A stretch of DNA of 64,000 nucleotides, taken from assembly GCA_902790415.1 (NCBI GenBank), contig CADARU010000004.1, forward strand, positions 397-64,396, given 5' to 3'. The DNA is from an uncultured Pseudomonadota bacterium. GTDB taxonomy: Bacteria; Pseudomonadota; Alphaproteobacteria; Rs-D84. This document shows positions 26,018 to 43,216 of the stretch, piece by piece. The notes beneath the pieces are model-generated. The model saw only the letters and a program-made list of their open reading frames with translations. It had not been told where the DNA came from and did no database searches. Numbering within the stretch: the stretch's first letter is position 1; the number at the start of each line of letters is the position of its first letter. The position numbers and the translations under genes are program-made.

Positions 26018-28156
26018 ATGAAAAAAATATCAAAGATTTTGTTTACTGTCGTTTGCGCCGGTGTGTGTGGTGTTGCGTTGGCTAATGTTGCAACAACGGC
26101 TGGTAATAATTTAACCGCGTATAACGGCGGTGCTTCTAGCAATAACAATAAATGGAATACGATGTCTAATTCGCGTTCCGGGGCGACATCTTCTGCGCCG
26201 GCAACGGCAAATTTTGGAAACTGTAATGCGGTTGTGTTACGCTGTGCATCGCCAAAATGTTCGGGTGGTGGATGTATGGATATGATGGTGGCACGTTCCA
26301 TTGTTGCCGGATGTGTGGCATCAAACGAATCGTGCAAGAAACATGGCGACCCATTGATTGATGCGATTACCGGGCAAATTGTTGCTCAATCGACTGCGAC
26401 CGCAAATGCCCAGGCTGCGGCGGCGGCGGCATCACAGAGTAATGCCCAGGTTGAACAAATGCAGATGCAAATGCAACAGATGCAGGCATCTATGCAAGAA
26501 TCTATGAACGCAATGCAGGCGCAAATGGCGCAACAAAACGAAATGGCAAATCAACAGTTGCAATCTGCGTTGGCGGAACAGCGTTCTGTGATGGAGGCGG
26601 CCCAGGCCGCGGCGGCGGAATCTGCGACAAATGCGGTTGCAACCGCCGGGATGGAGGGTATGACAGTTGCCGAACAGGTTGCGGCAAAGAATAATATGGA
26701 TGTTGATGTTTTGGTGCGTTCGCAGAGTTTGGGACAAATAGAGACCGCGGTTGAAGATGCAACAAAAAAAATGGATGATTTAAAAAAAGTTTTATCTCGT
26801 TTGTTGGAATATGGCGGTTGTGATTCTTCGGCAAATCATTGTGAGGGGCCAAAGCGTGTAAAGAAATTTAAAGATATTGCAAACGAATTTTTCGAACCGT
26901 ATGAAGGTGTTGCGGACAGTATGTATGATGCAATGATGTTGGCAATGAGTTTGGGTGTTGATATTAGTCAGGTTGTCATGATGCTTAGTGGTTCTTGTAA
27001 TATGTGGGGCAAATATATGTGTGATGTTTGTTCAACAAGTGATGTGAATGCAGGAAACTGTTTAAGTGTTGGAAACAAGTATTATTATCGTGTGGAAACA
27101 TACAGTCAAGCAGATGGTGTCGAAGAAAGTAAATTGGGCCGGGTAAAGCCGCAACAGCCACACTGTCGTTTGGTTGAAATTTTATCTGATGGTGCCGAGG
27201 TTCAACGTGAATGGATTGATTCTAATTCCGGAATAACCGGCAATGTTCAGGTTGCCTGTGCAACGGATACTTTGGGTAATATCGGTATATTCAGCCGTCG
27301 TAATAAAATGAATTCATTAATCGATATTGAATCTGTCCGGGATTTAGTCAACCAAGATGCGTATGGTGTGTGTAAAAAAGACGATGACAGAACACTTTGT
27401 ATGAATTATTGCGCAACCAGAAAAACGGACAATTGGTATCAGAACTTGCAAACGGCGGTAAAAAACAAAACTATAAAAAAAGCCAATTGTAAAAAAGAGG
27501 CAAATGGCCGTTTAACCGATGCCGGCAGCCAGAATGAAGATGTGTGGCCGAATTGTACGTATTTTCCGCAAGAATATGCGTTGTGTACGGTGCATGCGTA
27601 TAATATCGGTAAAACCTTGACGCAAGAGATGACTTCCAGCGAATTGTCAGAGATGCAAGAAGTTATTGCGTTAAAATCTACGGTGATTGCACAAATGATA
27701 AAGCAACAATATGATGCATTGAATACGATGGTTAAACAGTTGAAAACCCATTTGCAAAAGGCCGTATTAACAACAAAAACCGAAATCGCAACTGGTAACG
27801 TTTCAGGGGGCAGTTCGGGTGGTTTGTCTTTGTCGGCAAAACAAGATGGAATTTACTTGGCTGGTGCCCAAAATTGCAAGATGATAACGTCCGGTGGAGT
27901 ATCCGCAGCAGCGCAGTGTTTGCAAACTAATGCGAATTTGGCTATGAATGCGCAAAGTAAGGCAGATGCGCGTAAACAGTTAAAGGAAGATTTGGAAATT
28001 GCTAAGCGTTGGGGATTGTGCGGAACAGATAATAAGTGCTGTAACAACGAAAATGATCCGAAATCTTGTGCACAAGAGTTACTTATGAACATTTCAATAG
28101 AATTGCAAAAAAAGCAGGATGAACGTGATAGCAGGATGTATTATCCTGGCAGGTAA
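26018..28156 (+). CDS. Large secreted cysteine-rich protein with Q/M/A-rich coiled coil (member of the Cys-motif family)
   Basis: ATG at 26018 (the ORF-track start 26003 is a GTG five codons upstream). Signal peptide MKKISKILFTVVCAGVCGVALA. N-terminal motif NCNAVVLRCASPKCSGGGC, a QMQMQMQQMQASMQ stretch, and many Cys residues throughout. Confidence 0.65.
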   Translation: MKKISKILFTVVCAGVCGVALANVATTAGNNLTAYNGGASSNNNKWNTMSNSRSGATSSAPATANFGNCNAVVLRCASPKCSGGGCMDMMVARSIVAGCVASNESCKKHGDPLIDAITGQIVAQSTATANAQAAAAAASQSNAQVEQMQMQMQQMQASMQESMNAMQAQMAQQNEMANQQLQSALAEQRSVMEAAQAAAAESATNAVATAGMEGMTVAEQVAAKNNMDVDVLVRSQSLGQIETAVEDATKKMDDLKKVLSRLLEYGGCDSSANHCEGPKRVKKFKDIANEFFEPYEGVADSMYDAMMLAMSLGVDISQVVMMLSGSCNMWGKYMCDVCSTSDVNAGNCLSVGNKYYYRVETYSQADGVEESKLGRVKPQQPHCRLVEILSDGAEVQREWIDSNSGITGNVQVACATDTLGNIGIFSRRNKMNSLIDIESVRDLVNQDAYGVCKKDDDRTLCMNYCATRKTDNWYQNLQTAVKNKTIKKANCKKEANGRLTDAGSQNEDVWPNCTYFPQEYALCTVHAYNIGKTLTQEMTSSELSEMQEVIALKSTVIAQMIKQQYDALNTMVKQLKTHLQKAVLTTKTEIATGNVSGGSSGGLSLSAKQDGIYLAGAQNCKMITSGGVSAAAQCLQTNANLAMNAQSKADARKQLKEDLEIAKRWGLCGTDNKCCNNENDPKSCAQELLMNISIELQKKQDERDSRMYYPGR

Positions 28157-28196
28157 TTAATTTATTTACCAAAATTTTCCCGAATATTTATTTTAT

Positions 28197-28225
28197 TTGA
28201 CTTTTGGTTGTGGGCGGTATAAAAT
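28197..28225 (+). promoter_or_regulatory. Sigma70-like promoter for rpoA-rplQ
   Basis: TTGACT (28197..28202), a 17-nt spacer, then TAAAAT (28220..28225). Confidence 0.5.
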
Positions 28226-28296
28226 ACGCGGGCACGTAAGGATTTTATGTGTGCCAAATGGCGAAAATGATAAACTAAGCCCATGGGAGTTTTTAA

Positions 28297-29325: not shown

Positions 29326-29551
29326 AATTGTGATAACACGTCCGTTGTTGCGTTTGTCGGTCCAGGTATAGGTTTACTGCACTGCGAATCGTCAAACGTT
29401 TCCAACTGACGTATTCTGACAATTTTCTTGCAACCGCAAGGACTTTGTCGAAAAAGACCGTATTGCTGAATTTTGAATTTGGGGTACGGGTGTGTCTAAA
29501 AAAATCCCGTCCTTTTATAGGGCAGGGCAGAAAAAAATAAAGGAGTAGCCG

Positions 29552-30106: not shown

Positions 30107-30126
30107 TTTGTCTGGTTATCAAATAA

Positions 30127-30162
30127 AAGAGGTCCATATTTTGTGGGCCTTTTTTGTTTTTT
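30127..30162 (+). terminator. Rho-independent terminator after rplQ
   Basis: Stem aggtcca-tattttg-tgggcct (one G-U pair) followed by tttttgtttttt. Confidence 0.65.
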
Positions 30163-30166
30163 ATTC

Positions 30167-30195
30167 TTGTATGAAATTGTATATTATGATAGAAT
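30167..30195 (+). promoter_or_regulatory. Sigma70-like promoter for the 940-aa gene
   Basis: TTGTAT (30167..30172), a 17-nt spacer, then TAGAAT (30190..30195). Confidence 0.45.
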
Positions 30196-30219
30196 AATAG
30201 GGATTATAGAGGGAAAGAA

Positions 30220-33042
30220 TTGAAGAATTTACTGATTTTGGTGGCTTTTCTTGCCTGTTCGTTTAACGCAGTTGCGGCGGTGCGCACGCCTGCGCGTGGT
30301 TCTTCGGGGACAAATGCATCTGGGAACACGACGGTTTCTGCACGTGCGGCGGTGCGTGGTGCGCGCAGTGCGACAACCTCGAACGTGGCACCTGCAACGT
30401 CTGGGGCGGGGGCCGGTGCGGTGGTGCAACGTCGTGGCGCGCCTGCGGCGGCAACAACATCATCCGGTACAACGGTCGGGCGCAGTGCGACACCTGTAAA
30501 AACAACGGCGGCGCGTGCGGCAAAACAGAACGTTGTTGCAGGTGGGACCAAGGTTGCGTCTGCAGCGCAAAATACGTTGGTTGATGAAACCTGTCGCCAG
30601 AAATTTGATGGTTGTATGGATTCTTTTTGTATGATGGAAAATGCCAGTGGTGGCCGCTGTTTGTGCAGTGATAGAAACAAAGAATTAAACACGTTGTTGG
30701 CACAAATAGAACGTCTGGATGCACAAAGTTATAAAATGGCAACCGAAGGTGTCGAAAAAATCGAAATGGGTGAAAATGCCGATGCGGTAATGGCCAGTGC
30801 CAAGGCAATAACAAAATCTTTGGATGGTAAATCCGAAGAAGATTCAAAGACCAAACGTCGCAAATTAAACCTAGATGCGTGGAAAAACGTTTCTGTGGAT
30901 GAAGATTCTATTTTTGGTGAAGATGACGGTGAAAAACGTATAGAAGACCAGGAAGGCGATGCGTTGTTTGCGATGTCTTATGATTTGTGTGTTGCGCAGA
31001 TGCCGGAATGTTCGTCTAATTTTAGTATGTTGGGGTCGTTGTATCGTCAACGTGTGCGTTCTGATTGTACGGCATTTGAAAACAGTTTAAAGCAAAAACA
31101 AACAGAAAGCCAACAGAAGTTGGCCGCGGCCGAGGCCGCCATGCGCGAAGCCGCATTGGAACAATATAAATCTGCGAACAAGTATGATTTGGGACAATGC
31201 ACAATTCAATTCAAGCAATGTATGCAAACAACGGCCGGTTGTGGTGAAGATTTTACCGGGTGTGCCGGTTTGGCCGCGGCAGAAGAGGCGGTAACCAAGA
31301 AAAATACCAAGTCAAAAAAGGCGAAACAAACAACTATCCAGGGGACAGTGTCGTCTATTACTATTGCGGCGGCGACATTTGATACGTTGGAATCCAAGAA
31401 ACCGTTATGTATGGATGTAACCAAAAACTGTGTCAATGTTCGGGACCAGGTTTGGAATACCTTTTTGCGTGAGGTTGCGCCGGAATTAAAATCTGCGGAA
31501 TTATTGGCGGAATCTAATTTGCGTACGTCATGTATTGGTAATATTGCGCAGTGTTTTCAAAAGGCATGTAAAGATAATATTGATCCAAATGATGAAGAAG
31601 GGTCTTATGATATGTGTCTGTCGCGCCCAGAAACCGTAGAATCGCTGTGTAAGGTTGAAATACAACCATGTGTGGCCGCAGAACCCAAGATTATGGATTA
31701 TGTTCGTGCAAAGTTGGCATCTATGCGTGTTGATGCGTGCACCAAAGAGGTCAAAGATTGTTTACAGGATGAAAATCGCTGTGGCAAGGATTACGCGGGT
31801 TGTATCGGTTTAGATACGGACACAATCGTCCGTTTGTGCCCCCCCGAAAAATTGACCGCATGCTACCAAGAATATGGGGGTAAAAAATCTACTGTCGATG
31901 ATGCATTAACCCGCATGGTCGACGGCATATTCTTAAACATTGATAATTCAATATTAGACCAATGTCAAAAATTGGCCCAAAACAAGGTAATTGAAATATG
32001 TGGCTCGTTGTCAGAAACAGAATGTCAGGCGTTTTCTTCCGATGATTCTATTGGTACAGATTCCCTGTTATCTTATAAAGATAACAATGGTAACATAACA
32101 ATTGACGGTTTGTTAGATTTTAATGCTCTGACTTCAAAAGAAACGTCCAGTGCTAAAAATGGCATATTATACACAGTGGATGCAGATGCATATTTGCAAA
32201 AAATTAATCAAAGTGGTGCAGAATTTGCAACCCAAGAACGTATCAAGGCGGCAATTAATGGTGTAAAAAACAAAATTGATCAGCGGATAAAGTTGTTAAA
32301 TATGGACCCAAAAATTTCTATGTGTATTAACGGTCGTGATACATCGCAGTTGTCCAGAAATTCACAAAAGGCATCCAGTAATTTGGCAGAAAACGGTCGT
32401 ACAAATGCACGTTTCCCACATCTGTTGGACAGTTATCAATTAATGATTTTAAACGCAGGAATTTCCCAAGCCAACAAAAATTATTCCAAAAAGAAAGACA
32501 GTTTGGTCGCGGATGCGATAGAGTCGCGCAGCGATGATGAAAAGGCCGCAATTTGTGCCGCAATGGCAATTAACGAAGGTGCCGCGGTTTGTAAAGAATA
32601 CAAGGCAGACGATGGAGGTAACGCGGTTTGTACGAACTATGAGCCCAAGGCCCCTTTAAGCAATCTGTTTGTTGATAGCGATCAACAAATTGGCTTGGAT
32701 GCGTCCGGTACAAAAATGGTTATCCAAGGTGCAGACCTAGAAAAGAAATTAACGGCCATCACTAATGGTAAGGGCGAATTTATTCAAACAGATAAAGATG
32801 GAAATATGGTTGGCCGTATAAATATGACCGCCGCATATAGTGCCGATAACAACATCTGTAAAATTGTCACAGAAACAATTATGTGTAAAAACATAGAGGC
32901 CATTTTAACAGATGTGAAGAAATTAAAAACGAAAGATGAAAATGGTAACAAAATTAAAAAGAAAAAATATAAAGAATATCAGGGCTCTCAATGTACAGAA
33001 TTTGCAGACCCGATGATATCCAGTGATGAAATTAGATTATAG
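30220..33042 (+). CDS. Large secreted cysteine-rich protein (940 aa) with repeated C-x6-C-(M/L)-x3-4-CG-x2-(F/Y)-x2-C motifs
   Basis: TTG start 6 nt after SD GAGGG. Signal peptide (M)KNLLILVAFLACSFNAVAA. An R/A/T/S/G-rich low-complexity region is followed by multiple Cys motifs: TCRQKFDGCMDSFC, QCTIQFKQCMQTTAGCGEDFTGC and ACTKEVKDCLQDENRCGKDYAGC. Confidence 0.7.
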   Translation: MKNLLILVAFLACSFNAVAAVRTPARGSSGTNASGNTTVSARAAVRGARSATTSNVAPATSGAGAGAVVQRRGAPAAATTSSGTTVGRSATPVKTTAARAAKQNVVAGGTKVASAAQNTLVDETCRQKFDGCMDSFCMMENASGGRCLCSDRNKELNTLLAQIERLDAQSYKMATEGVEKIEMGENADAVMASAKAITKSLDGKSEEDSKTKRRKLNLDAWKNVSVDEDSIFGEDDGEKRIEDQEGDALFAMSYDLCVAQMPECSSNFSMLGSLYRQRVRSDCTAFENSLKQKQTESQQKLAAAEAAMREAALEQYKSANKYDLGQCTIQFKQCMQTTAGCGEDFTGCAGLAAAEEAVTKKNTKSKKAKQTTIQGTVSSITIAAATFDTLESKKPLCMDVTKNCVNVRDQVWNTFLREVAPELKSAELLAESNLRTSCIGNIAQCFQKACKDNIDPNDEEGSYDMCLSRPETVESLCKVEIQPCVAAEPKIMDYVRAKLASMRVDACTKEVKDCLQDENRCGKDYAGCIGLDTDTIVRLCPPEKLTACYQEYGGKKSTVDDALTRMVDGIFLNIDNSILDQCQKLAQNKVIEICGSLSETECQAFSSDDSIGTDSLLSYKDNNGNITIDGLLDFNALTSKETSSAKNGILYTVDADAYLQKINQSGAEFATQERIKAAINGVKNKIDQRIKLLNMDPKISMCINGRDTSQLSRNSQKASSNLAENGRTNARFPHLLDSYQLMILNAGISQANKNYSKKKDSLVADAIESRSDDEKAAICAAMAINEGAAVCKEYKADDGGNAVCTNYEPKAPLSNLFVDSDQQIGLDASGTKMVIQGADLEKKLTAITNGKGEFIQTDKDGNMVGRINMTAAYSADNNICKIVTETIMCKNIEAILTDVKKLKTKDENGNKIKKKKYKEYQGSQCTEFADPMISSDEIRL
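31824..31946 (+). repeat. Recombination handle, copy 1 (inside the 940-aa gene)
   Basis: 123 nt with 117/123 identity to the reverse complement of 34524..34646, including perfect runs of 50 and 44 nt. All six differences are synonymous third-position changes. Confidence 0.9.
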
Positions 33043-33081
33043 AACCAAAAACGCGCCTATTGGCGCGTTTTTGGTTCTATA
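33038..33081. terminator. Bidirectional terminator between the convergent 940-aa and 504-aa ORFs
   Basis: Perfect palindrome tatagaaccaaaaacgcgcc-tat-tggcgcgtttttggttctata. Confidence 0.8.
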
Positions 33082-33103
33082 ATGTTTATGCACCTTTGTT
33101 ACC

Positions 33104-34654
33104 CTAGGCATTGCCGTGGTTACTTGACCCACCACCGGTTCCAGACGAACTACTGCCCCCCCCACTTCCATTTTTCTTTGGTTTCGGCTCTCGTTTAGGT
33201 TTATTATTATTATTGTTGTTGCTGTTAATATTGGTATCACCATTACCAACAGCGGACTGACCTCCATCTTTGCTTGCGGAACCGCTACCTACATTAGAAA
33301 CACTGCTGTTATCAATATTACCACGATTACCGATGCTGCCAATGGATGCCCCACCAAAACCAAGACTGGTACTTTTGCTGTTATCGACACTGCTGTTATC
33401 AACATAGTTGGATGTCAAATTTGAACGTGTTATGTTACCAGCAATGACCTCGCCCGATGACATGTTAATTAACTGTTCGGTAACAATTGGCTCTTGGAAA
33501 CTGTTACACACAGACCCCTTGTAATTTGTTACCGATGTGCCAACGTTAACACCACCGCCAATACCGGCGTATTCTGCTTGAACCCCAACATCAACACTTT
33601 TTCCATCGGAAACAGTTGTCATTGCCGCACATGCATATATCGTACGTGTTATACGACAAACCTTTGGACCGGCCTCGTATGCGGCCGAAACCGTTTCTTT
33701 GCCCACCATGGTTTCTTCGTCTTCTATTTGTCTTCTTTTATCGACACGACGCGGAACCTCTTTTAATGCAGACGAAATTTTTGCGGTCAGCACACGTTCG
33801 GTTGTATTCTTTTGTTTTAATGCCTCTAATAAATCACTGCTGTCTGGGCCACCAGAAATAGATACCTGACAATCGGTTGGAACGACATTGGAACGCGTTG
33901 CAGATTCACCCATGGTGATGCTATCAAAATCATCAACCAGCGCCAGACGATTACAATAAATGGTGTTTTTGTAATCTTCAGCCGCATTTTTTCCTTCGTT
34001 TGTCGCGTTCACAAACATTTCTGTATATTTGGTATTATAATTGGTTTCTGCGGCGCTTAGTATAGAATCCGCAATAATCGCAGAATAATTATCCAACAGA
34101 TGCGGAAAACGTGCGGCAGTGCGTTTCTTGGACCCTGTGATTTGTCGCATATCACGTCCCGTTACACACATATTAACGGTTGGGTCGGCCAACAATACAT
34201 CAAATTTGCGTTTTATTGTATTAAATATTCCTTGTAATGTGGCAGATTTACCGTTACCGTTGGGACACACATCATAACTGTTTAAATCAATATTGTAATA
34301 TTCAATCGGATTTTTATCAGATGAATTTGACACCAAATCTAATTTAACTTTGCCAAATGTTACCAAACCATCAATGATAGTTGTACCTCTTGAATTCGTA
34401 TAGGACCGCAAAGATTCTACCCCTAAATTAGGGTCATCTGTAACAGATATACATGCGGTTTCATCGCCACAAATTTCAACAAATTTTTTACGTGCGGCAT
34501 TTTGACAGGCCGTTAACATACTGTTATCGATGTTTAAGAATATGCCGTCGACCATGCGGGTTAATGCATCATCAACGGTGGATTTTTTACCCCCATATTC
34601 TTGGTAGCATGCGGTCAATTTTTCGGGGGGACATAAACGGACGATTTTGACCCG
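33104..34654 (-). CDS. 5'-truncated paralog of the C-terminal half of the 940-aa protein (promoterless, no signal peptide; candidate silent cassette)
   Basis: The frame is open from just after an in-frame TAG (34655..34657). There is no ATG and no SD; the ORF-track start at 34618 is a TTG that corresponds to an internal Leu of the paralog. The first 41 aa (IVRLCPPEKLTACYQEYGGKKSTVDDALTRMVDGIFLNIDNS) are identical to residues within the 940-aa protein. Beyond that, similarity is only distant (FPHLLD, ICG, IDGL). The C-terminus is a low-complexity N/S/G tail. Confidence 0.55.
   Translation of the reverse strand, partial: RVKIVRLCPPEKLTACYQEYGGKKSTVDDALTRMVDGIFLNIDNSMLTACQNAARKKFVEICGDETACISVTDDPNLGVESLRSYTNSRGTTIIDGLVTFGKVKLDLVSNSSDKNPIEYYNIDLNSYDVCPNGNGKSATLQGIFNTIKRKFDVLLADPTVNMCVTGRDMRQITGSKKRTAARFPHLLDNYSAIIADSILSAAETNYNTKYTEMFVNATNEGKNAAEDYKNTIYCNRLALVDDFDSITMGESATRSNVVPTDCQVSISGGPDSSDLLEALKQKNTTERVLTAKISSALKEVPRRVDKRRQIEDEETMVGKETVSAAYEAGPKVCRITRTIYACAAMTTVSDGKSVDVGVQAEYAGIGGGVNVGTSVTNYKGSVCNSFQEPIVTEQLINMSSGEVIAGNITRSNLTSNYVDNSSVDNSKSTSLGFGGASIGSIGNRGNIDNSSVSNVGSGSASKDGGQSAVGNGDTNINSNNNNNNKPKREPKPKKNGSGGGSSSSGTGGGSSNHGNA
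34524..34646 (-). repeat. Recombination handle, copy 2 (5' end of the truncated cassette)
   Basis: Inverted copy of 31824..31946. Similarity stops abruptly at 34646/34647, 3 codons downstream of the in-frame stop codon that opens the frame. Confidence 0.9.
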
Positions 34655-34807
34655 CTAAAATTTTGAAAAATTTTTTTCAGGTTTTCTGCGGTGTTGCCGG
34701 CGATTATATAGGGTTACGGCCGATTTTAAAAAATTCCGGATTTCCAGGCTTTTTATATTCTAATGAAAAATACGTATAATTTGCATAATAATTACGGAAT
34801 GTAAAAT

Positions 34808-34837
34808 AAAAAAATGCCCGAATTTTCGGGCATTTTT
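34808..34837. terminator. Bidirectional rho-independent terminator downstream of the 768-aa gene
   Basis: aaaaaaatgcccg-aatttt-cgggcattttt. Confidence 0.8.
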
Positions 34838-34861
34838 GGACACCTTGTGTTTCTATTGTTT

Positions 34862-37168
34862 CTAGCGTGTTGTTGCGCCCTGGGTTCCAGAACCGCCTGT
34901 TCCTGGGGTTGATGTCGGGCATGTGGCATCATTGTCGACAATGCCATAACGTTTTGCGGTGGTCATATTGATACCGCATGTTGCGCCGTTCATTCTGCAT
35001 GCAGACACAACTTCACGTGGGGTATAGATATTTTCAGGCATATATCCAACCGTTGCATTCGTACATTCATCGGCACTGGTAAATGTTTTGCAAATTGCAT
35101 CCCAGTTACCACAGTTCGTTACAATCAGTGCAGATGAACTGGCCGGTGTTTTCGGAACCTGTAATGCCCATTTGACATAGAAATCACGCAGACGGTCAAT
35201 AGTGTATGATTTATTCAACTCTACGCGATCCAAATCATCACCAACGCGACAGTTGATTCTGTTCTTTTCAACGAACGCGGTAATCAACGTTGCGGTTCCG
35301 CCGGCCGCTGCACCAGATGCCGCACCAATCGCGGTTGTTTTTGCACGATTGTCTTTGGTGCCGGCAAATACACTATCCAATCCTGCAAATGCGGTGCGAA
35401 TCTTATTTACCTCGTTTTCAAAGTCACTCTTGATAATACAGTTGTGATCAGATGCTTCGCAATATACACTGTCAGAATCTTTGATTGCCTGGTTCAGTTC
35501 TTTGAAACTGCAACGTGGAGACAAGGTTTCGTGAATGTCTGGATTTGCCACAACCCTGGAATCAATTTCAATTTTGAAAGGAACCTTGGTTTGATAATTA
35601 AGTATCTCGCATTTACAGCTTTTTTCATTGGTGCATTGGTTCATTGTTTCTGTGCATTTTTTGATTATTTCATCAGTTACAGAAACCCCGTATGTTTCGC
35701 ACTGTCCGGCCAAATAGCGTTCAGTATTCAAATCTAAGACAACACCATAGGTACGTGCGGTGTCTTCGCAATTTTTGATTGCTTCTTGGCCATCGTTACC
35801 AATTTCGTACAATGTACGTAATTGTTCGCATGCATCTTTGTTTATAATTGCGCCAGTACTGGTTAAATTGCCACTGTCTAATTCTTGTGCGACATCAGAA
35901 ATAGCATGGTCTTTTAAGAATTGACGTAATACACCGATGTTTTTGCTGTCGCGCAACGCATGCGTCAAATCGCGACGTTGTTTTTCATCGCCACAATCAA
36001 ACTCAGATGCCTTGTGTCCAGCCGCAAAACCAATTCCGGCACCAACCGCTGTTCCAACCGGAACTGCGATAATCGCCGCCTTTTTGGTGTCGTTCATCAA
36101 CGAGAACCCGAACAAATCTTTGTTACATGTAAAGGTTTCGCCGGTTGCGCGCCATACCTGGGCAGGACCCTTGTCGCCAATTCCAAATACGTCATTGGTG
36201 ATTAATTTATCTTTGTTATATGCCGCGACACGCAATAAACATTGTGCGTTTTGGGCATCCCAACGCGCATAGTATCCACGATTTGCATCGTATGTGCCGT
36301 TGGTGTTGACTTCTGCGCCTTGGGGGTTAGGTTTTATCAGTGGCGCATCTTTATCTTTGGGTTTCTGACTGTTGTATGCGGCAACCGCTTGTGCATACTC
36401 AGAATTAGTATTATCTAACTTGCCAACTGCATTAAATGATGCACCATACGTGTTGCGATCTAACAATAAACAAGTGTTTTCCGCCTGGATAGGGGTAAGA
36501 CCGGTTCTGCTTAATACAAATGCATAGTACGCAGGTTGAACGCGACGTGCGTTAAAGTCCAACCATACATCACGTGCAGATTGGTACATTGGGACACAAC
36601 CGCTGTTATCGCTCTTGGGTAATTTTACGTTAGATATACAGTATTCAACCTGGCTGATACACAAATTCATACCATTAAATATAGATTCACGTAATTCTGC
36701 ATCAAACATAGAATTTATACCGTTCGGCAATGCGCCGCTGTTAACACAGGCCGCAATATCCGCCATACAAGAATCCACCGTATAACTAAGGTCACACAAA
36801 CCGTTTGGTGTCGGATTCGGGTTCGGATTAGGATTCGGACCAGGATTCGGATCAGGATTTGGGTTCGGATTAGGATTAGGGTTTGGGTTAATCGGTTCCG
36901 GTGTTGTCGGAACTTCGTTTATAGTATTAATCTCGTTACCATTAGACGGTAATTTATTGCCAATAACATTTAATGGTAAAATCGGCATAGAAGGCATACG
37001 TTGTACATTGGTTGCACCACGACCCTGATTTTGATTATTAGATGCGCCGCCGCGTGCCGCACTTGTTGTCGCACCACCACGCGGAGAGTCCGCAAAAGCG
37101 ACACATGTGAACATTAAAACAGCCAGGCTAACCACACTCTTTTCCAATGTTTTCAGCAGAATATGCAT
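34862..37168 (-). CDS. Large secreted cysteine-rich protein (768 aa) with (PN)n linker and two Gly-zipper-like segments
   Basis: Strong SD AAGGAGG. Signal peptide ...VVSLAVLMFTCVAFA, an R/G/S/T-rich segment, INPNPNPNPNPNPDPNPGPNPNPNPNP, Cys motif CDLSYTVDSCMADIAAC, and G/A-rich segments AVPVGTAVGAGIGFAAG and AIGAASGAAAGGTATLITAF. Confidence 0.7.
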   Translation of the reverse strand: MHILLKTLEKSVVSLAVLMFTCVAFADSPRGGATTSAARGGASNNQNQGRGATNVQRMPSMPILPLNVIGNKLPSNGNEINTINEVPTTPEPINPNPNPNPNPNPDPNPGPNPNPNPNPTPNGLCDLSYTVDSCMADIAACVNSGALPNGINSMFDAELRESIFNGMNLCISQVEYCISNVKLPKSDNSGCVPMYQSARDVWLDFNARRVQPAYYAFVLSRTGLTPIQAENTCLLLDRNTYGASFNAVGKLDNTNSEYAQAVAAYNSQKPKDKDAPLIKPNPQGAEVNTNGTYDANRGYYARWDAQNAQCLLRVAAYNKDKLITNDVFGIGDKGPAQVWRATGETFTCNKDLFGFSLMNDTKKAAIIAVPVGTAVGAGIGFAAGHKASEFDCGDEKQRRDLTHALRDSKNIGVLRQFLKDHAISDVAQELDSGNLTSTGAIINKDACEQLRTLYEIGNDGQEAIKNCEDTARTYGVVLDLNTERYLAGQCETYGVSVTDEIIKKCTETMNQCTNEKSCKCEILNYQTKVPFKIEIDSRVVANPDIHETLSPRCSFKELNQAIKDSDSVYCEASDHNCIIKSDFENEVNKIRTAFAGLDSVFAGTKDNRAKTTAIGAASGAAAGGTATLITAFVEKNRINCRVGDDLDRVELNKSYTIDRLRDFYVKWALQVPKTPASSSALIVTNCGNWDAICKTFTSADECTNATVGYMPENIYTPREVVSACRMNGATCGINMTTAKRYGIVDNDATCPTSTPGTGGSGTQGATTR
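36808..36892 (-). repeat. Hexanucleotide (GGATTN/GGGTTN)n tandem repeat encoding (Pro-Asn)n
   Basis: The plus strand reads gtgtcggattcgggttcggattaggattcggaccaggattcggatcaggatttgggttcggattaggattagggtttgggtt. Confidence 0.85.
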
Positions 37169-37194
37169 GAAAAATCCTCCTTTCTATCTTTGGC

Positions 37195-37203
37195 ATTATA
37201 TCA
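37195..37203 (-). promoter_or_regulatory. Extended -10 element (TGATATAAT) for the 768-aa gene
   Basis: The reverse strand reads ttattgTGaTATAATgcc about 25 nt upstream of the SD/ATG. Confidence 0.45.
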
Positions 37204-37268
37204 CAATAACGAACATTATAAAAGACATTTTTAAATATTTTTTAATTTTTTATTCTTAATTTTGTTGA

Positions 37269-37296
37269 TTGACAGATAAAAATAAATGTCTATAAT
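37269..37296 (+). promoter_or_regulatory. Consensus sigma70 promoter for the 382-aa membrane-protein gene (possibly giving a leaderless mRNA)
   Basis: TTGACA (37269..37274), a 16-nt spacer, then TATAAT (37291..37296). The -10 overlaps the first ATG of the ORF (37286). The next ATG (37304) lies 7 nt after the -10. Confidence 0.55.
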
Positions 37297-37303
37297 ATAT
37301 AGT

Positions 37304-38434
37304 ATGAACAAGATAAAGAATTTTTTTAAATCTTATGCTCTGGTGATTACCTGGACGGTTTGCTATGCCGTAATGGTATGGGCAGTTTTACGTTTCTTGT
37401 TTAATTTTGATATTTTTGTTTTGCATAATTGGGTGCGTTTAACAGGATTTCATTTGCGTGGTTTCGCAGGGTTGGTTTTCGGGATGTTTATATTGGCGGC
37501 GGTGCCATTGTATTTTGCAACCACGGTGGTTGTGGCACGAACAAAAACCGCCCCTGTGCCGTTTAAAATCCCGTTACCGCGTTGGTTAAAGGCGGAACCT
37601 GCGCCGGTTACAAAAGAAGATGTTGTTGTGGAATCAAGACCGGAACGCGAAGAAATTGTTCTGCCGGCGGGGGCTCCAAAGGAAATGCGTGAAGGTTTTA
37701 TTCGTGCACGCAGAAACGCCAGTGCGCACCAATATTCGGTATTTAATAAACCAGAGGTTGATAAAGAGGTTGCAGATACCAAAGCAAAAAATGTTGTTAA
37801 TGATGTGGAATCTGGGACACAGAACGCGCAATCTGATGCGATGTCTGCGCAAAAGCGTGCCGTTATTGCCGCCGCACCAAAAAATAATTTGCGTAGAAAA
37901 AGTCAAGATTTGGTTCACGATACCCCAAATGGCTTGCCTTTGCCGGACAGTTTTGATATAGATTCCGGGGCCGAGGTTAATTTTGGCGCGCCAGTGTTTT
38001 CTGATATAAATTTTGATGATGATGAAGATTCTGGTGAAAAGGAAGTTGCCGAGGATAAAAAATCTGGGGCAGGGGATGCGCCAAAAAAATCAAATGCAAA
38101 TAAAGATTTTGTAAAGTATCTAAAAAAATGCGGGCAAAAAGCCAAGTATCAAAATGGATTATATCTGTCGGATAAATTTGTGATTGCATTGCATGATGAC
38201 GATGATTTGTGGATTGCAGATGATATAGATTGGTTTGCCGCAGGCAAGCAAAAACCATCACCAATTGCGGCATTAAAAAATGCACAGACACAATACGATG
38301 TTACACCAATTTTGTTCTTGGATAACGCGAATATAATGGACGGTGATACGTTAATAGACACATGGCGTAACGACGGTATAATGGTTGCACAAAGTACCGA
38401 TGAATTAGAAGAAATCTTGAAGGTTGCAGAATAA
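37304..38434 (+). CDS. Membrane protein, unknown function (N-terminal TM helices, acidic disordered middle, globular C-terminal domain)
   Basis: ORF 37286..38434, with the start moved to 37304 because the promoter -10 covers the first ATG. TM segments are YALVITWTVCYAVMVWAVL and GLVFGMFILAAVPLYFATTVVVA. Confidence 0.6.
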   Translation: MNKIKNFFKSYALVITWTVCYAVMVWAVLRFLFNFDIFVLHNWVRLTGFHLRGFAGLVFGMFILAAVPLYFATTVVVARTKTAPVPFKIPLPRWLKAEPAPVTKEDVVVESRPEREEIVLPAGAPKEMREGFIRARRNASAHQYSVFNKPEVDKEVADTKAKNVVNDVESGTQNAQSDAMSAQKRAVIAAAPKNNLRRKSQDLVHDTPNGLPLPDSFDIDSGAEVNFGAPVFSDINFDDDEDSGEKEVAEDKKSGAGDAPKKSNANKDFVKYLKKCGQKAKYQNGLYLSDKFVIALHDDDDLWIADDIDWFAAGKQKPSPIAALKNAQTQYDVTPILFLDNANIMDGDTLIDTWRNDGIMVAQSTDELEEILKVAE

Positions 38435-38437
38435 TTT

Positions 38438-39334
38438 TTATGGTATATCAACCAGACATTCTTTGACTTCTTTGCCTGTGTTGGTATCGGTTCCGGTGGT
38501 TGCCCAAATTGCGCGAACACCGACACGTGTGCTGTCTTTTGAACTTTTTTGTATTTCGGACAAGAATCGGTCGTAATCTTCGCACAGTTCTTCACTTTTC
38601 ACACCGACACAATTGTAATATTCTGGTTTTGATGGGTGTTGTCGCCAATTTGAACCATATCCATGATAGCAATAAAGTTCTGCTTTCTTTTCTGGGGTAA
38701 AATCTGTATCGGATAAATCTGTTACGACCCAACCATATACACGTTCACCATTGGTTTTACCATTGTTAATTGTATAATTTATAACCGCAAGATTTGGTGC
38801 ATTATACATTTGTTTGTTCCAAAATTCTTTTGTAATTTTGTATTGGCCATTGAACAGATTGCCCCACATTGTACGACCGTATTCTTGTATCATTGCTTTG
38901 TCGGCGGCACCGGCCTTGGAAAAAGGTCCCATGCACCATTGTGGAACCCTGACGGTATTATTATTTTCATCGCGGACCAGTTTTCCATTGGTAACGATTT
39001 GATTTGTATATTTTGTGCCACCTTCGGTTATTTCGGTATCCAGTTTTTGTTTGCATGGTTCTTTTGGGGCAACATAGGGTTTGCCGGCCAGTGTTACATC
39101 AGGGCATTTATGATTAGGGTAAACAAAGAAATATGGTTGCTGTGAATTATGGGTACTGTCTTCTGTGCTTTTATGCCAATTTTTGTATTTGTTATATATT
39201 TCTAATTCTTCACCGCTTAAATTGCTCTGACCTTTGGTCATAATATCGCATACATCTTGTCTTGATACCAAGGCATTCGCCACAGGGCAAAAACCAAACA
39301 AGATTAAAAATGTATAAATAAAACAATTCTTCAT
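38438..39334 (-). CDS. Secreted protein, unknown function (last gene of a 4-gene operon)
   Basis: Signal peptide MKNCFIYTFLILFGFCPVANA and scattered Cys residues. The SD lies within the 14-nt gap to the upstream gene. Confidence 0.6.
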   Translation of the reverse strand: MKNCFIYTFLILFGFCPVANALVSRQDVCDIMTKGQSNLSGEELEIYNKYKNWHKSTEDSTHNSQQPYFFVYPNHKCPDVTLAGKPYVAPKEPCKQKLDTEITEGGTKYTNQIVTNGKLVRDENNNTVRVPQWCMGPFSKAGAADKAMIQEYGRTMWGNLFNGQYKITKEFWNKQMYNAPNLAVINYTINNGKTNGERVYGWVVTDLSDTDFTPEKKAELYCYHGYGSNWRQHPSKPEYYNCVGVKSEELCEDYDRFLSEIQKSSKDSTRVGVRAIWATTGTDTNTGKEVKECLVDIP

Positions 39335-39348
39335 TATTTTAATCCTTG

Positions 39349-40338
39349 TTAATCGTTATCATCAAAAATTTTTGCATCACCGATACCGTTGTTATCTTGT
39401 TCGGCACGTTTTGCATCACGAAGTTTTTTACCCAATGTCAGGTTTGTTGTAACGGCGGTAACCAATCCGGCGGCGGCAACAGATGCACCAACGATTAAAC
39501 GTTTTTGAGTTTTATCTTTTTGTTCTGCCCATTTTTGTGCATCTTCACTGTTTTCATCGCGCAACGCGTTCGCCAATGAACCAAATGTACTTTGTACCTT
39601 TTGCGGTGGTGCGTATGTGTACAGATTGCTTTCCGATTTGTCTAAGATTTTTTCGGATTCAATACCCGGGGTCATTTTTAATGCGGTCTTGGTCTTTTGC
39701 AGGCGCGATGCCAGTGTTTTGTATTCGGTTACGTAATTTATCAATTCGTTTCCGCCACCAACATCTATTTCTTCTTCGCCCAGTTTATATGTGTTTCCAC
39801 GACCGTAATCACAACGCATTGTTGCCAAATATGCCGTCATATCGCGTTCCGCGGCGGCATCAGATTTCTTCTCGCTAAGTGCCTGGGCAGCCTGCATTGC
39901 ACCCAATCCCATGGATGCCATCGATGCGGCCTCTAGGGTTGCATTGGCCTTGTCTTTCTTTGTGTCTGTATCTTTGTCTTCTTTCTTTGTTTCTTCTTTG
40001 GTCTTTTCTTCTTTACCTGTTGGTGCTTGATTAACATCCTCGTTTTTTTTGTTTTCCTCGATATTTTTCTTTTTTGTTTTGTTTCGTTCATTGACCGCTT
40101 TGTTATAAGCATCTTTTGTATTTGTTTTTGTCTTTGAATTTGATGTGTTCGCGGTGTTTTGTTGTGTGTCTTTTTTTTCTTTATTTATTGCGGCTTCCTC
40201 TTTTGCCTGATTTTCTGTAGCTTTTGTGGCAGAGTTTGTCCCTTTGTTTGTCACTGTTGCGGCACCAGCATACACGACATCAACATGTGTTGATATCGAA
40301 ATTAATACGGTGAAAACACAAACTATAATTTTTTTCAT
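39349..40338 (-). CDS. Secreted/anchored Lys-Glu-Thr-rich protein with Gly-zipper-like C-terminal TM segment
   Basis: Signal peptide MKKIIVCVFTVLISISTHVDVVYA, a K/E/T/N low-complexity region, MASMGLGAMQAAQAL, and a C-terminal IVGASVAAAGLVTAVTTNLTL followed by a basic/acidic tail. Confidence 0.6.
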   Translation of the reverse strand: MKKIIVCVFTVLISISTHVDVVYAGAATVTNKGTNSATKATENQAKEEAAINKEKKDTQQNTANTSNSKTKTNTKDAYNKAVNERNKTKKKNIEENKKNEDVNQAPTGKEEKTKEETKKEDKDTDTKKDKANATLEAASMASMGLGAMQAAQALSEKKSDAAAERDMTAYLATMRCDYGRGNTYKLGEEEIDVGGGNELINYVTEYKTLASRLQKTKTALKMTPGIESEKILDKSESNLYTYAPPQKVQSTFGSLANALRDENSEDAQKWAEQKDKTQKRLIVGASVAAAGLVTAVTTNLTLGKKLRDAKRAEQDNNGIGDAKIFDDND

Positions 40339-40384
40339 TTTTATCCTGTTAATTCATCCTATTTATTCACTTTGTACCTGTTTT

Positions 40385-42289
40385 TTAATTGGCTTTGGTA
40401 GCATTATTATACATCGCTTTTCGAACGAGTTTATTGGTTCCTGCTTGCTCACAGTTCAGTGCGCAATCTTTTGAACATAATGCGTTGTTTTCGTCGCTAT
40501 ATAAATAGATCCATGGTGATTTTATCGTTGTATCTTGGTCATCGACAGAATATGTCGTCATTTTACAAACACAGTGTTGACCGGTTGTTGCTGCTGCCTC
40601 AATATTTTCATTTTTAACGGGTTTTCTGGAGGAAGGGGAAGCTCCGAGGTTGTCAACGCATGCAGAAACACCTTTGATGATGTAGCCATCAAATTGTACC
40701 AACCAATCTCCCTTGTTTGATGGGGTTCCCCAGTCTCTCATCCTAGTGGTCTTACCGTTAAGGCTTTGGCTAGTAGAATCAGTTTTGGATTTTTCTACGT
40801 CAAGCACACCAAATATTAAATTCGATGTTGCATCAGCGGTAGTGTTGGTGCTTTCATTATTGTTATCACTGGTGTTACTGTTGCTATCACCGTTGTTATC
40901 AGTTGGTGGTGTTGTGGCACCATTTGTAGTTGGCGTTGCAGTATTATTGTCTGATTCACTAGTTCCATTGTCACTCGGTTGATCGTCTATTTTGATGCAT
41001 GTTTTGTAATCCCCGCTAATATTGTGGGTTTCTCGGGGACATTTACAAATTTCATTGCCAGTGACTGGATTAATATGGGGAGTACCAGCGCTTCCTTCGC
41101 ATGCTGCTTTTTCCGCCTCGGTCATTTTTGTGCCGGCTTTTTGTTCATTATTGCTTGCATTTACACATGCTTTTGTTGTTTCGTCCCATGTTTGATTTTT
41201 TTCACATGCTTCACTGTTGTTTGCGTCATCATTATTTTCGCCACCAAGTTTACCGAAATTCCAATTTTCTTTATCAAATGCGCCTGCGCGTTCCAACGCG
41301 CCCGATGTTAATGTTGAAACACCTGTGCCAACACCCGCGCCCAATGCGGCAGATGATGCGGCCTTTTCACTGCGTGTTAAACGATATGCGTTTTCTTTAA
41401 ACGTTGTAACGTCAATGCCAAACCATTCGGGGGTACATTGAAAAACACTGCCCGAATATAACTTTTTTGATGCGTATGGTTTATCGGCATTGTCCGCATA
41501 GAAATTGACGGTAAAGACACAATCCAGTGTACGGTTGTCAAATATCGCACCTTGGGCCTTGCATACAGATTCCATTTTGTCGCGCAATTCATACAGGCGT
41601 TTTTCATCCGCGCGTGCTTGTTCTTGGGCATGTTTGCGCAGGGTGGCAAAAACCTCGGTTGCGCGGGACGGCAGGCCGCTGTCCTGAGATTTACATTTGT
41701 CGGCAATCGATTTACATTTTGATATTGCGGCATCGCCATCGGTTTTTGCGATACAATTATCCATCGTTGTGCCACAATTTTTAAATATGCACTCGTTATA
41801 TTCTTGACCACATTTAACAATTTTTTGGTATTCACCCATTTGAACATTCAAATCGCGGTCGGCCTTGATTTCCGGGACCAACAATGCGTATTCGTGTGAT
41901 GTACATTTGGTGTTGCGGCGACATGCATCCATTTTGCCGCCCCATATAGATTCACTGTCGGTAAAACACTTTGAAAAATCATTGCCACATTTTTCTTGCA
42001 TACATTTACGTAAATCGGTATCACAGGCATTGACGTTTTGAATCCCCGATGCGGTTGCGATTGCGGCGGTTTCTTGGTTGTCCAATTTCGCGCGTTGTTC
42101 GCGTATCATTTCCGCCAAAGTAGAATTTGATTTGTTTGTGCTTTGTGCACCGGTTTCAGACAATGTCTCGCTGAAACGTGCGGATTTGTTTTCGCGAACC
42201 TCTTGTGCGGCAAAACTTACCACCGGCAGGGCGATTAAAATCGCGCCGAAATAAATTTTAGTTAAAAGATTTTCTAATCTTAGTTTCAT
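40385..42289 (-). CDS. Large secreted cysteine-rich protein (634 aa; Cys-motif family)
   Basis: Start trimmed to MKLRLENLLTKIYFGAILIALPVVSFA. Its ATG overlaps the TAA of the upstream gene (TAATG). Motifs include ACDTDLRKCMQEKCGNDFSKC and KCGQEYNECIFKNCGTTMDNC, plus the G-rich segment AALGAGVGTGVSTLTSGAL. Confidence 0.7.
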   Translation of the reverse strand: MKLRLENLLTKIYFGAILIALPVVSFAAQEVRENKSARFSETLSETGAQSTNKSNSTLAEMIREQRAKLDNQETAAIATASGIQNVNACDTDLRKCMQEKCGNDFSKCFTDSESIWGGKMDACRRNTKCTSHEYALLVPEIKADRDLNVQMGEYQKIVKCGQEYNECIFKNCGTTMDNCIAKTDGDAAISKCKSIADKCKSQDSGLPSRATEVFATLRKHAQEQARADEKRLYELRDKMESVCKAQGAIFDNRTLDCVFTVNFYADNADKPYASKKLYSGSVFQCTPEWFGIDVTTFKENAYRLTRSEKAASSAALGAGVGTGVSTLTSGALERAGAFDKENWNFGKLGGENNDDANNSEACEKNQTWDETTKACVNASNNEQKAGTKMTEAEKAACEGSAGTPHINPVTGNEICKCPRETHNISGDYKTCIKIDDQPSDNGTSESDNNTATPTTNGATTPPTDNNGDSNSNTSDNNNESTNTTADATSNLIFGVLDVEKSKTDSTSQSLNGKTTRMRDWGTPSNKGDWLVQFDGYIIKGVSACVDNLGASPSSRKPVKNENIEAAATTGQHCVCKMTTYSVDDQDTTIKSPWIYLYSDENNALCSKDCALNCEQAGTNKLVRKAMYNNATKAN

Positions 42290-43170
42290 TATTTTTGTTT
42301 CACCCGATTTAATGTTGCGCATGCGGTGTCCCAATATTTGCACAAATTGCTGGCCATGATTTTTTCATCCGCACCCTCGCATTTGCCGACCATATTTGTC
42401 GCGCAAATATTTTCAACACATTTGTTTAATGCGTTTTTGTTTTTACAAGAATTTTGCGCAGAATTTACGCGTGTTTTGCGGTTATCTTGATAGGCTTTTG
42501 TCAATCCCTCAATGGCATTATTGTTGTCTGCCAGTTGTTGCGTACGGGTGGCATTTATTTCGCCGCGCAAATCGGCCAAGTATTCATCACAACCAACAGA
42601 TTCAGTGGCGCATTGGGATATTGCGCGGTCAAAATCCGAATCGGCGGCGCATTTATCAAAACCAATTCCACAATTTGTATTCATACATTTTGTAATAGAT
42701 GCCTGACATTTAGATTTTGTTGGTTTTGTATTAATTGCACTGGTTGCGGCAGATATTTTCATCGCGACACCGGCGGCGGTACAAGATTGTTCTATCAATT
42801 TATCGTATACATCAGAAATATCTTCGGTTGTACAATCAGGTAATTTTTTCAAACATTCGCCAGATGCCCACATGTACCGTTTGCCGGCATCACTGGGGGC
42901 GTTTTTTAATTCTTTATCACTTAATGTGTTTTTGCTGGATTTTCCGGCACTGACCGATTTCATGGCTTTTTTCCCAGTTTGTGGGGTGCCGGCATCACTG
43001 GTTCCACAGTATTGGCAACGTGCCGCGGGGTTGGAACCGATGTTTATTGCACACGCCGAATCCAAGCAACGTGTTAGATTTTGTTTGGAACAACGTGCCG
43101 GGGCGGCCACAGTCGCCGCGATATGCGCGCATGTAAACAGTGCCACGAAAAATATTTTGTGATATTTCAT
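42289..43170 (-). CDS. Secreted cysteine-rich protein (293 aa; Cys-motif family; first gene of the operon)
   Basis: Signal peptide MKYHKIFFVALFTCAHIAATVAA. Motifs include RCSKQNLTRCLDSAC and KCQASITKCMNTNCGIGFDKC. Confidence 0.7.
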   Translation of the reverse strand: MKYHKIFFVALFTCAHIAATVAAPARCSKQNLTRCLDSACAINIGSNPAARCQYCGTSDAGTPQTGKKAMKSVSAGKSSKNTLSDKELKNAPSDAGKRYMWASGECLKKLPDCTTEDISDVYDKLIEQSCTAAGVAMKISAATSAINTKPTKSKCQASITKCMNTNCGIGFDKCAADSDFDRAISQCATESVGCDEYLADLRGEINATRTQQLADNNNAIEGLTKAYQDNRKTRVNSAQNSCKNKNALNKCVENICATNMVGKCEGADEKIMASNLCKYWDTACATLNRVKQK

Positions 43171-43187
43171 CTCTCGTCCTGATGGGT

Positions 43188-43216
43188 AGTATATCAGAAA
43201 ACAAAAAATGTTGCAA
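43188..43216 (-). promoter_or_regulatory. Sigma70-like promoter of the 4-gene minus-strand operon
   Basis: The reverse strand has TTGCAA (43216..43211), a 17-nt spacer, then TATACT (43193..43188). Confidence 0.5.

Follow-up and report, generated by a model that had tools for sequence, protein, structure and literature searches.

Conserved cysteine-rich protein families beside the ribosomal genes of Rs-D84 gut alphaproteobacteria: a candidate disulfide-stapled envelope complex with exchangeable domains

Introduction

Do the large, cysteine-rich secreted proteins encoded in and beside a bacterial ribosomal gene run belong to a single family, and do they act together at the cell envelope? The question is raised by a 64,000-nucleotide stretch of DNA (hereafter, the window) from an uncultured member of the alphaproteobacterial order Rs-D84 (GenBank assembly GCA_902790415.1, contig CADARU010000004.1, positions 397 to 64,396 of the forward strand). 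The window carries a str/S10/spc/alpha run of ribosomal genes (rpsL ... secY, rpsM, rpsK, rpoA, rplQ), and five genes for such proteins, denoted here C, D, F, J and K, are located between rpsK and rpoA and downstream of rplQ. A preliminary description of this DNA assigned them to one multigene family built on a repeated cysteine motif and suggested that they represent one envelope or surface system.

Bacteria of the Rs-D84/Enterousia group are common in human and animal guts. They have genomes smaller than 1 Mb, lack respiration, possess few biosynthetic pathways and do not make most of their building blocks, so that a partner-dependent lifestyle is presumed (PMC12306168).

We compared the window with loci from 79 related species-level genomes and with the locus of a strain, L080, that is near-identical to it. 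The comparison points to several protein families, each conserved across the order, in place of one. With confidence that goes about halfway, we read the set as a disulfide-stapled envelope complex exposing exchangeable variable domains, a function predicted from sequence.

A recurrent six-cysteine module

All five genes are present at the starts originally given for them (26018 and 30220 on the forward strand; 37168, 42289 and 43170 on the reverse strand), and every peptide quoted in support of the motif was located in the translations. An n/h region of the signal-peptide type is found at each N-terminus, as read from the translations with no dedicated predictor.

C, 26018..28156, + strand: 712 amino acids, secreted, between rpsK and rpoA; single six-cysteine module at nt 26222-26335
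D, 30220..33042, + strand: 940 amino acids, secreted, immediately after rplQ
Canonical six-cysteine module of D, 31738..31863, + strand: residues 507-548
Partial module copies in D, 30592-30666 (residues 125-149) and 31198-31263 (residues 327-348), + strand
F, 34862..37168, - strand: 768 amino acids, secreted; six Cx6C pairs
J, 40385..42289, - strand: 634 amino acids, secreted; six-cysteine modules at nt 41903-42025 and 41693-41812
K, 42289..43170, - strand: 293 amino acids, secreted; 20 invariant cysteines; six-cysteine modules at nt 42589-42708 and 42319-42447

The motif was tested in the strict form C-x6-C-[MLI]-x3-6-CG-x2-[FYM]-x2-C against residue shuffles of the same five proteins (20,000 rounds). 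Five instances were observed where 5e-5 were expected, and none of the 20,000 shuffles equalled this number. Gaps of exactly six residues between adjacent cysteines occurred 30 times, compared with 4.4 expected in shuffles, and Cx6C pairs numbered 11 in D, 6 in F, 5 each in J and K, and 3 in C. The repeat unit proved to be longer than the motif first described: a module of about 40 amino acids with six cysteines, C-x6-8-C-x4-6-C-x4-7-C-x11-14-C-x5-7-C, is present in six copies (starting at C74, D507, J107, J178, K155 and K242) against 0.008 expected, again unmatched in 20,000 shuffles. Both the motif and the module are thus far above expectation in the shuffling check that the preliminary description had proposed. 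C has one copy of the module, D one canonical and two partial copies, and J and K two each; the module was not found in any other open reading frame (ORF) of the window. F contains generic Cx6C pairs and no module, and the F peptide SYTVDSCMADIAAC, formerly cited as a motif instance, is only a Cx6C pair. A scan of the relatives, also proposed at the outset, recovered the module in 81 of 88 D, 45 of 46 J and all 45 K ORFs from the 79 related species.

We predict that the module is a helix-loop-helix of about 40 residues, with likely pairing of C1 with C6 and C2 with C5, and a small C3-C4 loop, CGxxFxxC, at the turn. The AlphaFold2 model of K is all-helical, with a mean predicted local distance difference test (pLDDT) score of 80 that exceeds 90 over residues 150-290. 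In D, a disordered basic tether (residues ~21-105) is followed by a long helical, cysteine-stapled region (~123-540) and an alpha/beta C-terminal part, and the AlphaFold2 model (mean pLDDT 63) accordingly has long helices and then an alpha/beta part ending in long beta hairpins. The module of C precedes a helical stretch rich in Gln, Ala and Met, and then a cysteine-rich body.

One explanation to be weighed at this point is that these are unrelated hypothetical genes whose cysteine spacing arose by chance or from composition. C and F indeed lack profile-level homology to D, J and K (see below). The shuffle tests refute this explanation, and against it stand also the conserved synteny and the cysteine columns (some 33 for D and 20 for K) that are nearly invariant across hundreds of orthologues; we consider it scarcely credible.

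Separate families without described relatives

By sequence comparison, D, F, J and K resolve into four distinct orthologous families, all conserved order-wide, and the cluster proteins share at most the ~40-amino-acid module; the single multigene family originally proposed did not survive this comparison. When profiles built from the related loci were aligned with each other, J matched K with 93% probability (E = 3e-7, 125 columns), and D matched J with 58% and K with 26%, hhalign placing D residues 505-597 against J residues 105-193. We read J-K as homologues and D-J as a weak case of homology. C matched the others at the signal peptide only and has just the module in common with them, whereas F matched J with 47% probability at the glycine-zipper region, not at the cysteine motif. 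Homology of C and F to D, J and K was rejected as unsupported by these profile comparisons. BLASTP searches within the window paired D with E and gave one other link, a weak one, between J and K. The sole true paralogue pair in the window consists of D and the 5'-truncated E, a pair that had previously gone unnoticed.

Homologues number more than 1000 for D (all annotated as hypothetical), 738 for K and 658 for J. Searched against 1.84 billion representative proteins, the K-family profile retrieved 66 clusters only, with no tie to other families. Pfam and NCBIfam scans of all cluster proteins yielded low-complexity or sub-threshold noise only, with no family match for C; searches of PDB sequences with the family profiles of D, K, F and G gave nothing below E = 0.3; and Foldseek found no match with E < 0.001 for the D model in PDB and BFVD or for the K model in PDB. 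Weak Foldseek matches of the beta domain of D to levivirus coat proteins were rejected. Literature searches on Enterousia, Rs-D84 and Cx6C yielded no description of these proteins. The statement that the proteins cannot be assigned to any known family therefore held in the searches that had been suggested to check it, and by the same searches no fewer than four protein families of the locus are undescribed and its six-cysteine module, predicted to be helical, is new.

Relatives of the cluster proteins come exclusively from metagenome-assembled genomes of rumen, faecal and termite-gut origin. These genomes carry the labels Candidatus Enterousia, "Alphaproteobacteria bacterium" or "uncultured Rickettsiales", and all belong to the Genome Taxonomy Database (GTDB) order Rs-D84 of gut alphaproteobacteria. 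One Rs-D84 cluster, locus L066 (CAVGNU010000007.1), is deposited under the name Bacteroides fragilis and is probably a mis-binned or mislabelled metagenome-assembled genome. The GC content of the region (0.40-0.46) is the same as in the remainder of the window and tblastn of D against phage and plasmid collections returned zero matches, so the cluster is native chromosome rather than an island; the lack of such matches speaks against an origin from a mobile element.

Conserved gene order and transcription units

Further components of the locus, in addition to the five genes above, are the following.

Perfect 22+22-nt hairpin, 33036..33083, no strand: between the D and E stop codons; bidirectional terminator candidate
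E, 33104..34652, - strand: copy, inverted and 5'-truncated, of the C-terminal 60% of D, to which it is 33% identical, with an intact frame of 504 codons
G, 37286..38434, + strand: membrane protein of 382 amino acids with two N-terminal hydrophobic helices, nearly cysteine-free
I, 39349..40338, - strand: 329 amino acids, downstream of J; variable N-terminus, glycine zipper at nt 39883-39936
M, 43868..47557, + strand: 1229 amino acids, divergent from K; a signal peptide, a pair of ankyrin repeats and a segment resembling a glycine zipper

Local rearrangements aside, the order rpoA-rplQ-D, divergent G/F, (I)-J-K and divergent M is found in most of the 79 species-level loci. D is retained there at 45-47% identity where rpoA and secY show 88%. 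F is present in 64 of the 79 loci, mostly divergent from G, and in most species K has M beside it as a conserved, divergently oriented gene.

The preliminary description also inferred co-orientation in operons. This applies to K, J and I: the stop codon of K overlaps the start codon of J (TAATG), and I begins 46 nt after J. It does not apply to D, F and C, which have their own terminators. Hairpins of the terminator type are located after rpsK, B, rplQ, D/E and F, and because of them D, F and C look like separate transcription units within or beside the ribosomal operon. The intergenic region shared by F and G contains a perfect TTGACA-16-TATAAT promoter match. The claim that the motif genes fill most of the ~19 kb downstream of rplQ has to be reduced: together with E, those named there cover about 9.4 kb of 13 kb (30220-43170), and they are interspersed with G, H and I, which are different proteins.

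G has a conserved C-terminal domain of about 110 residues with the motif H-x-D-x-D-F-W...W-F-A-x-G, and neither G nor this domain had a family or PDB match. M contains, in addition, a poly-Asn/Gly stretch and a C-terminal region of alternating, beta-like hydrophobicity. Three small secreted proteins, A (24727-25488), B (25592-25915) and H (38438-39334), contain cysteines and lack the module. B has three cysteines, ends with CxxCNW and adjoins rpoA in 34 of the 79 species; neither A nor H recurs among the 79 loci, H being shared only with the near-identical strain L080.

Cysteine parity indicates structural disulfides

The number of cysteines in these proteins is strongly constrained in parity. 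Mature D has an even count in 111 of 115 sequences (p = 3.5e-28), mostly 36 or 38 within a series of 34/36/38/40; exactly 20 cysteines are present in 103 of 118 K proteins; and the count is even in 60 of 64 F proteins (range 20-36) and in 13 of 14 mature C proteins. Cysteine numbers change by twos, which points to paired disulfides and argues against four-cysteine metal sites; we conclude that parity, as a property of the sequences, indicates structural disulfides.

Where the parity is odd, it is odd in a patterned way. J has an odd count in 112 of 118 sequences, with 15 cysteines in the conserved N-terminal part (116 of 119) and an even number, ranging from 0 to 50, in the variable C-terminal part (115 of 119). 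I is likewise odd in 17 of 20 orthologues and contains a conserved "CDYG" cysteine. From one unpaired cysteine in each, J and I are probably joined by an intermolecular disulfide. Within F, the N-domain has an odd number (9), the region between the two hydrophobic segments an even number (62 of 64), and the C-domain again an odd number (7 or 13). This alternation suggests that one disulfide joins the N- and C-domains, with the middle region folding independently. An attempt to derive the pairing from joint loss of cysteines was abandoned, the cysteines being too invariant: only single events were seen, for the pairs C162/C187 of K and C791/C804 of D.

The same counts bear on the possibility that these are metal-binding or redox proteins, in which the cysteine clusters hold Zn or Fe or shuttle electrons. 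Regularly spaced four-cysteine clusters would be compatible with such a role, as would an anaerobic lifestyle in which no pathway of oxidative folding is evident. Metal sites fit poorly, however, with steps of two, not four, in D, in F and in the variable part of J, and the proteins lack His or Asp partners as well as CxxC and CxxCH signatures and gave no metalloprotein family match in the Pfam and NCBIfam scans. We therefore regard this role as very improbable.

Putatively exposed domains are replaced as whole blocks

The L080 contig matches the window at 99-100% identity over rplQ, the greater part of D, most of F, G, H and a portion of I, and the divergence that remains is sharply confined. 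In D, the divergent block takes in about residue 500 onward (31730-34802 in the comparison of the loci); identity decays from about nt 31530, falls below 50% past 31933 and stays low across the whole E region. In F, the divergent stretch (nt ~35330-36000) lies exactly between the two zipper segments of the following layout: conserved N-domain (residues 125-360), zipper 1 (nt 36014-36079), hypervariable loop (nt ~35339-36013), zipper 2 (nt 35264-35338) and conserved C-domain. The third divergent stretch runs from the zipper of I through the intergenic region to the zipper of J.

Hypervariable block (N-terminus of I and C-terminus of J), 39900..41270, - strand: 20-50% identical to L080, with flanks 99-100% identical

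In J, the modules are followed by a glycine zipper (nt 41294-41362) and the hypervariable C-terminal domain; in I, the zipper is followed by a conserved core with a single cysteine (C177) and a second hydrophobic segment. A fourth difference between the strains concerns low-complexity linkers, which change in length: the (PN)n linker of F, a tandem 12-nt repeat at 36801-36880, differs by 24 nt, and similar insertions and deletions occur in the disordered N-terminal tether of D (30254-30335 and 30436-30535).

Synonymous divergence (dS) between the window and L080 is 1.7-2.3 in the F loop and 0-0.05 in its flanks, an excess which implies that blocks were replaced by recombination rather than eroded by point mutation. 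Other close relatives of J change at a similar place. In P0309, P0310 and P0312, identity drops from 93-100% to below ~35% at residues ~321-340, just past the zipper (310-332), whereas in P0308 there is a dip only in the 321-360 bin and full divergence follows after ~440.

An inverted cassette beside D, a candidate switch of its C-terminus

E lacks a signal peptide, and the stretch homologous to D has a sharp onset, preceded by a stop codon and unrelated sequence. D and E are arranged tail to tail around the perfect 22-nt hairpin, and they share a highly similar inverted repeat, outside which the adjoining sequence is ~55% identical or unrelated.

Inverted-repeat arms, 31818..31946 (in D, residues ~533-575) and 34524..34652: 129 nt, 94% identical

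The repeat covers the last two cysteines of the D module and the next ~30 residues, and the onset of divergence between the window and L080 (~31530-31950) spans the D arm. In L080, the cassette is absent and the N-terminus of D continues into a C-terminus of the E type, 55% identical to that of E, from which it follows that recombination at the D/E junction clearly occurred in this lineage. A like design, at D residues ~490-600, is present in three other species (L004, 352 nt, 100% identical; L057, 184 nt, 96%; L047, 97 nt, 93%), and in a weaker version in L070; altogether, only some 4 of 81 loci have such an arrangement. The window contains no further truncated D cassette, and no recombinase domain was found in the neighbouring ORFs scanned. 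In JGI metagenomes, scanning for exact patterns recovered neither the flipped junction nor the unflipped control junction. The inverted repeats flank alternative 3' ends for one constant 5' part, as in an invertible C-terminus, and this makes the D/E repeat a candidate switch of the C-terminal domain.

Probable envelope location

Evidence on location comes mainly from I. The I of the window is a minimal form in which Pfam detects neither an OmpA nor a CarboxypepD_reg domain. Orthologues in other species (L025, L060, L019, L061, L071 and L013) comprise 570-1236 amino acids with up to 81 cysteines. A C-terminal OmpA domain (PF00691) scores above the Pfam gathering cut-off in 6 of 8 I orthologues tested (42-57 bits compared with 27.2), and many carry a CarboxypepD_reg domain at the N-terminus. 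Peptidoglycan genes are kept in Rs-D84, and MltG and RodZ are encoded in the window. Conserved Gly/Ala-rich hydrophobic segments are present in F (two), J, I and M; glycine-zipper profiles matched below threshold only, at F residues 599-627 (E 0.0045-0.009). Lipoprotein anchoring was considered and rejected: a canonical lipobox is missing from C, and the signal-peptide cysteine is kept in only ~20% of the D and K sequences.

The variable parts are very probably extracytoplasmic, because their cysteines are paired. From the position of the zippers between constant and variable parts, we infer a topology in which the conserved domains would be periplasmic and the hypervariable ones surface-exposed, with the zipper as the boundary.

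The strongest competitor of a surface-exposed complex is a purely periplasmic scaffold or tether between outer membrane and peptidoglycan that replaces lost envelope parts and exposes nothing at the surface. The OmpA domain of the I orthologues would suit it well, and so would the absence of a recognisable outer-membrane export signal or beta-barrel from D, J and K and the order-wide retention of these genes in genomes below 1 Mb. What it does not readily accommodate is the replacement of whole blocks in D, F, J and I between strains that are otherwise 99-100% identical, a pattern typical of exposed regions under frequency-dependent selection, nor the length range of J homologues, from 355 to 1099 amino acids. 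On this balance, a scaffold of this kind seems unlikely, though less so than the other competitors.

Alternatively, the proteins could be effectors or toxins released into the medium, the host or a competitor, their variation reflecting an arms race with targets. Such proteins would likewise be expected to have signal-peptide-like N-termini, high cysteine content and strain-level diversity, and the ankyrin-repeat neighbour M would be in keeping with them. The hydrophobic zipper segments and the OmpA domain point instead to anchoring; Pfam and NCBIfam scans revealed neither toxin domains nor secretion ATPases, and no small genes of the immunity type; and the conserved parts are large, with a nearly invariant cysteine pattern. 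Release as effectors is, in our judgement, improbable.

A candidate disulfide-stapled envelope complex

In the disulfide-stapled complex that we favour, D, F, J and K, joined in some species by C, would be parts, along with I, G and M, of one envelope-associated system specific to Rs-D84. The conserved parts would form elongated helical domains made rigid by many structural disulfides. K and J would be made together through their overlapping stop and start codons, J and I linked by a disulfide between one unpaired cysteine of each, and the assembly anchored to peptidoglycan through the OmpA domain of I in most species. F may fold back on itself across its two zippers, and D may serve as a stalk with an exchangeable head. 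The putatively exposed domains (the C-terminus of D, the loop of F, the C-terminus of J and the N-terminus of I) are swapped as whole blocks by recombination between strains, and in some genomes the C-terminus of D could also be exchanged with the inverted E cassette through the common repeat. The likely role would be contact with host or partner cells, or evasion of phages or immunity. Conserved synteny, the K/J overlap, OmpA in the I orthologues and cysteine parity all speak for the single envelope or surface system first suggested for this locus, even though its members are not one family.

Several observations weigh against this complex. C is located near rpoA in only 13 of the 79 species. 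The zipper segments remain below every family threshold, and outer membranes are rarely spanned by alpha-helices. I has two hydrophobic segments, unlike a simple topology with the N-terminus outside and OmpA inside; D is without any anchor segment, and confidence in its structural model is only moderate (pLDDT 63). No flipped form of D/E was seen, four contigs of the window's strain sharing one orientation and the metagenome scans missing the control junction as well. Finally, about 100 disulfides are hard to account for in an anaerobe without a respiratory chain, and no Dsb-type oxidase was found in the 64-kb window.

A bolder and decidedly doubtful version of the same idea, to which we give about half the credence of the complex itself, is that of an undescribed envelope organelle: a peptidoglycan-tethered scaffold of K, J, I, F and D, crossing the outer membrane by its zipper helices and offering exchangeable heads for attachment to partner or host cells, with programmed head switching at the module junction of the D/E cassette, that would be built without the usual quinone-dependent disulfide machinery.

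In the window the cluster occupies about 17 kb (30220-47557), which is roughly 2% of a genome of less than 1 Mb. Its conservation throughout the order, combined with hypervariability at defined blocks, makes it an obvious candidate for a partner-attachment or exchange interface. Foldseek searches of the PDB and BFVD libraries revealed no structural relative of the module. The set poses the biochemical question of how a strict anaerobe with no respiratory chain oxidises proteins of 20-80 cysteines, and cassette replacement between strains offers a handle for strain typing and for studying selection on symbionts.

Other features of the window

Elsewhere in the window, uvrA (53855-56603) is read as two overlapping frames, 53855-55321 and 55239-56603, owing to a frameshift of the gene or to misassembly. 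An ORF of 175 amino acids (56626-57153) matches only the M (signal-peptide-binding) domain of Ffh/SRP54, with no N or G domain upstream. Tandem paralogues at 5806-6573 and 6706-7500, 40% identical, are cysteine-free and have signal peptides; they have the look of small outer-membrane proteins and match no Pfam family. Large secreted proteins encoded at 151-1791 and 2929-4503 are likewise orphans.

Comparison with known systems

The closest formal parallels of the module are the CHCH proteins with twin Cx9C and the small Tim proteins with twin Cx3C motifs of the mitochondrial intermembrane space, in which cysteine pairs at fixed helical spacing on two antiparallel helices likewise staple a helix-loop-helix, presumably by two disulfides. 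The module differs in its i, i+7 spacing of one heptad (x6 instead of x9 or x3), in the additional C3-C4 loop and in having six cysteines per unit, with a pairing that is predicted. The cluster proteins, moreover, are bacterial, large and multi-modular and have signal-peptide-like N-termini, and Pfam found no match to CHCH (PF06747) at E <= 0.1 in C, D, F, J or K. In gamma-retroviral and filoviral class I fusion subunits, the turn that joins two long helices carries a disulfide-closed Cx6C(C) loop, and an additional cysteine forms an intersubunit disulfide (PMC9967133, PMC11575397). The CGxxFxxC turn of the module and the unpaired cysteine of J can be likened to these, as a resemblance of motifs only, with no homology and no evidence of fusion activity.

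The Hcp proteins of the host-associated Helicobacter are secreted helical repeat proteins of Sel1-like repeats with one disulfide per helix pair and regular cysteine spacing. They differ from the cluster proteins in repeat length and cysteine pattern and lack zipper anchors and hypervariable blocks; no Sel1 repeat (PF08238) was detected by Pfam in the cluster. The chlamydial OmcA/OmcB/MOMP complex offers a parallel of another kind, that of disulfide-rich envelope proteins in an obligately host-dependent bacterium with a reduced genome, and a similar structural role is possible. The chlamydial proteins are beta-rich and show no homology, the Chlam_OMP3 and Chlam_OMP6 models had no Pfam or NCBIfam match in the cluster, and Rs-D84, by contrast, keeps its peptidoglycan genes. 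For TraN-type cysteine-rich outer membrane proteins there was no model match, and neither transfer genes nearby nor plasmid homologues were found.

The D/E arrangement recalls Anaplasma Msp2/P44, Neisseria pilE/pilS, the PilV shufflon of R64 and the G segment of phage Mu. These systems, too, combine a constant N-terminal part, expressed from one site, with a nearby, promoterless, 5'-truncated alternative C-terminus, a highly similar repeat at the junction and mosaic alleles between strains. D/E differs in having a single cassette, no adjacent site-specific recombinase and repeats of 97-352 nt instead of 19-34-bp sites; it is known as a genome arrangement, neither inversion nor conversion having been seen directly.

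The I orthologues, with zipper-like segments and a C-terminal OmpA domain, resemble the YiaD/Pal glycine-zipper and OmpA lipoproteins. The OmpA domain is the only part that matches, and scores fall far below the equivalog cut-offs; the I orthologues have no lipobox, are much larger and have cysteine-rich variable N-termini. Placed among these systems, the Rs-D84 set comprises strongly conserved, previously undescribed families of a little-studied symbiont lineage, with an unforeseen cassette-like mode of variation, and would be akin in function to the disulfide-rich, variable envelope proteins of other bacteria.

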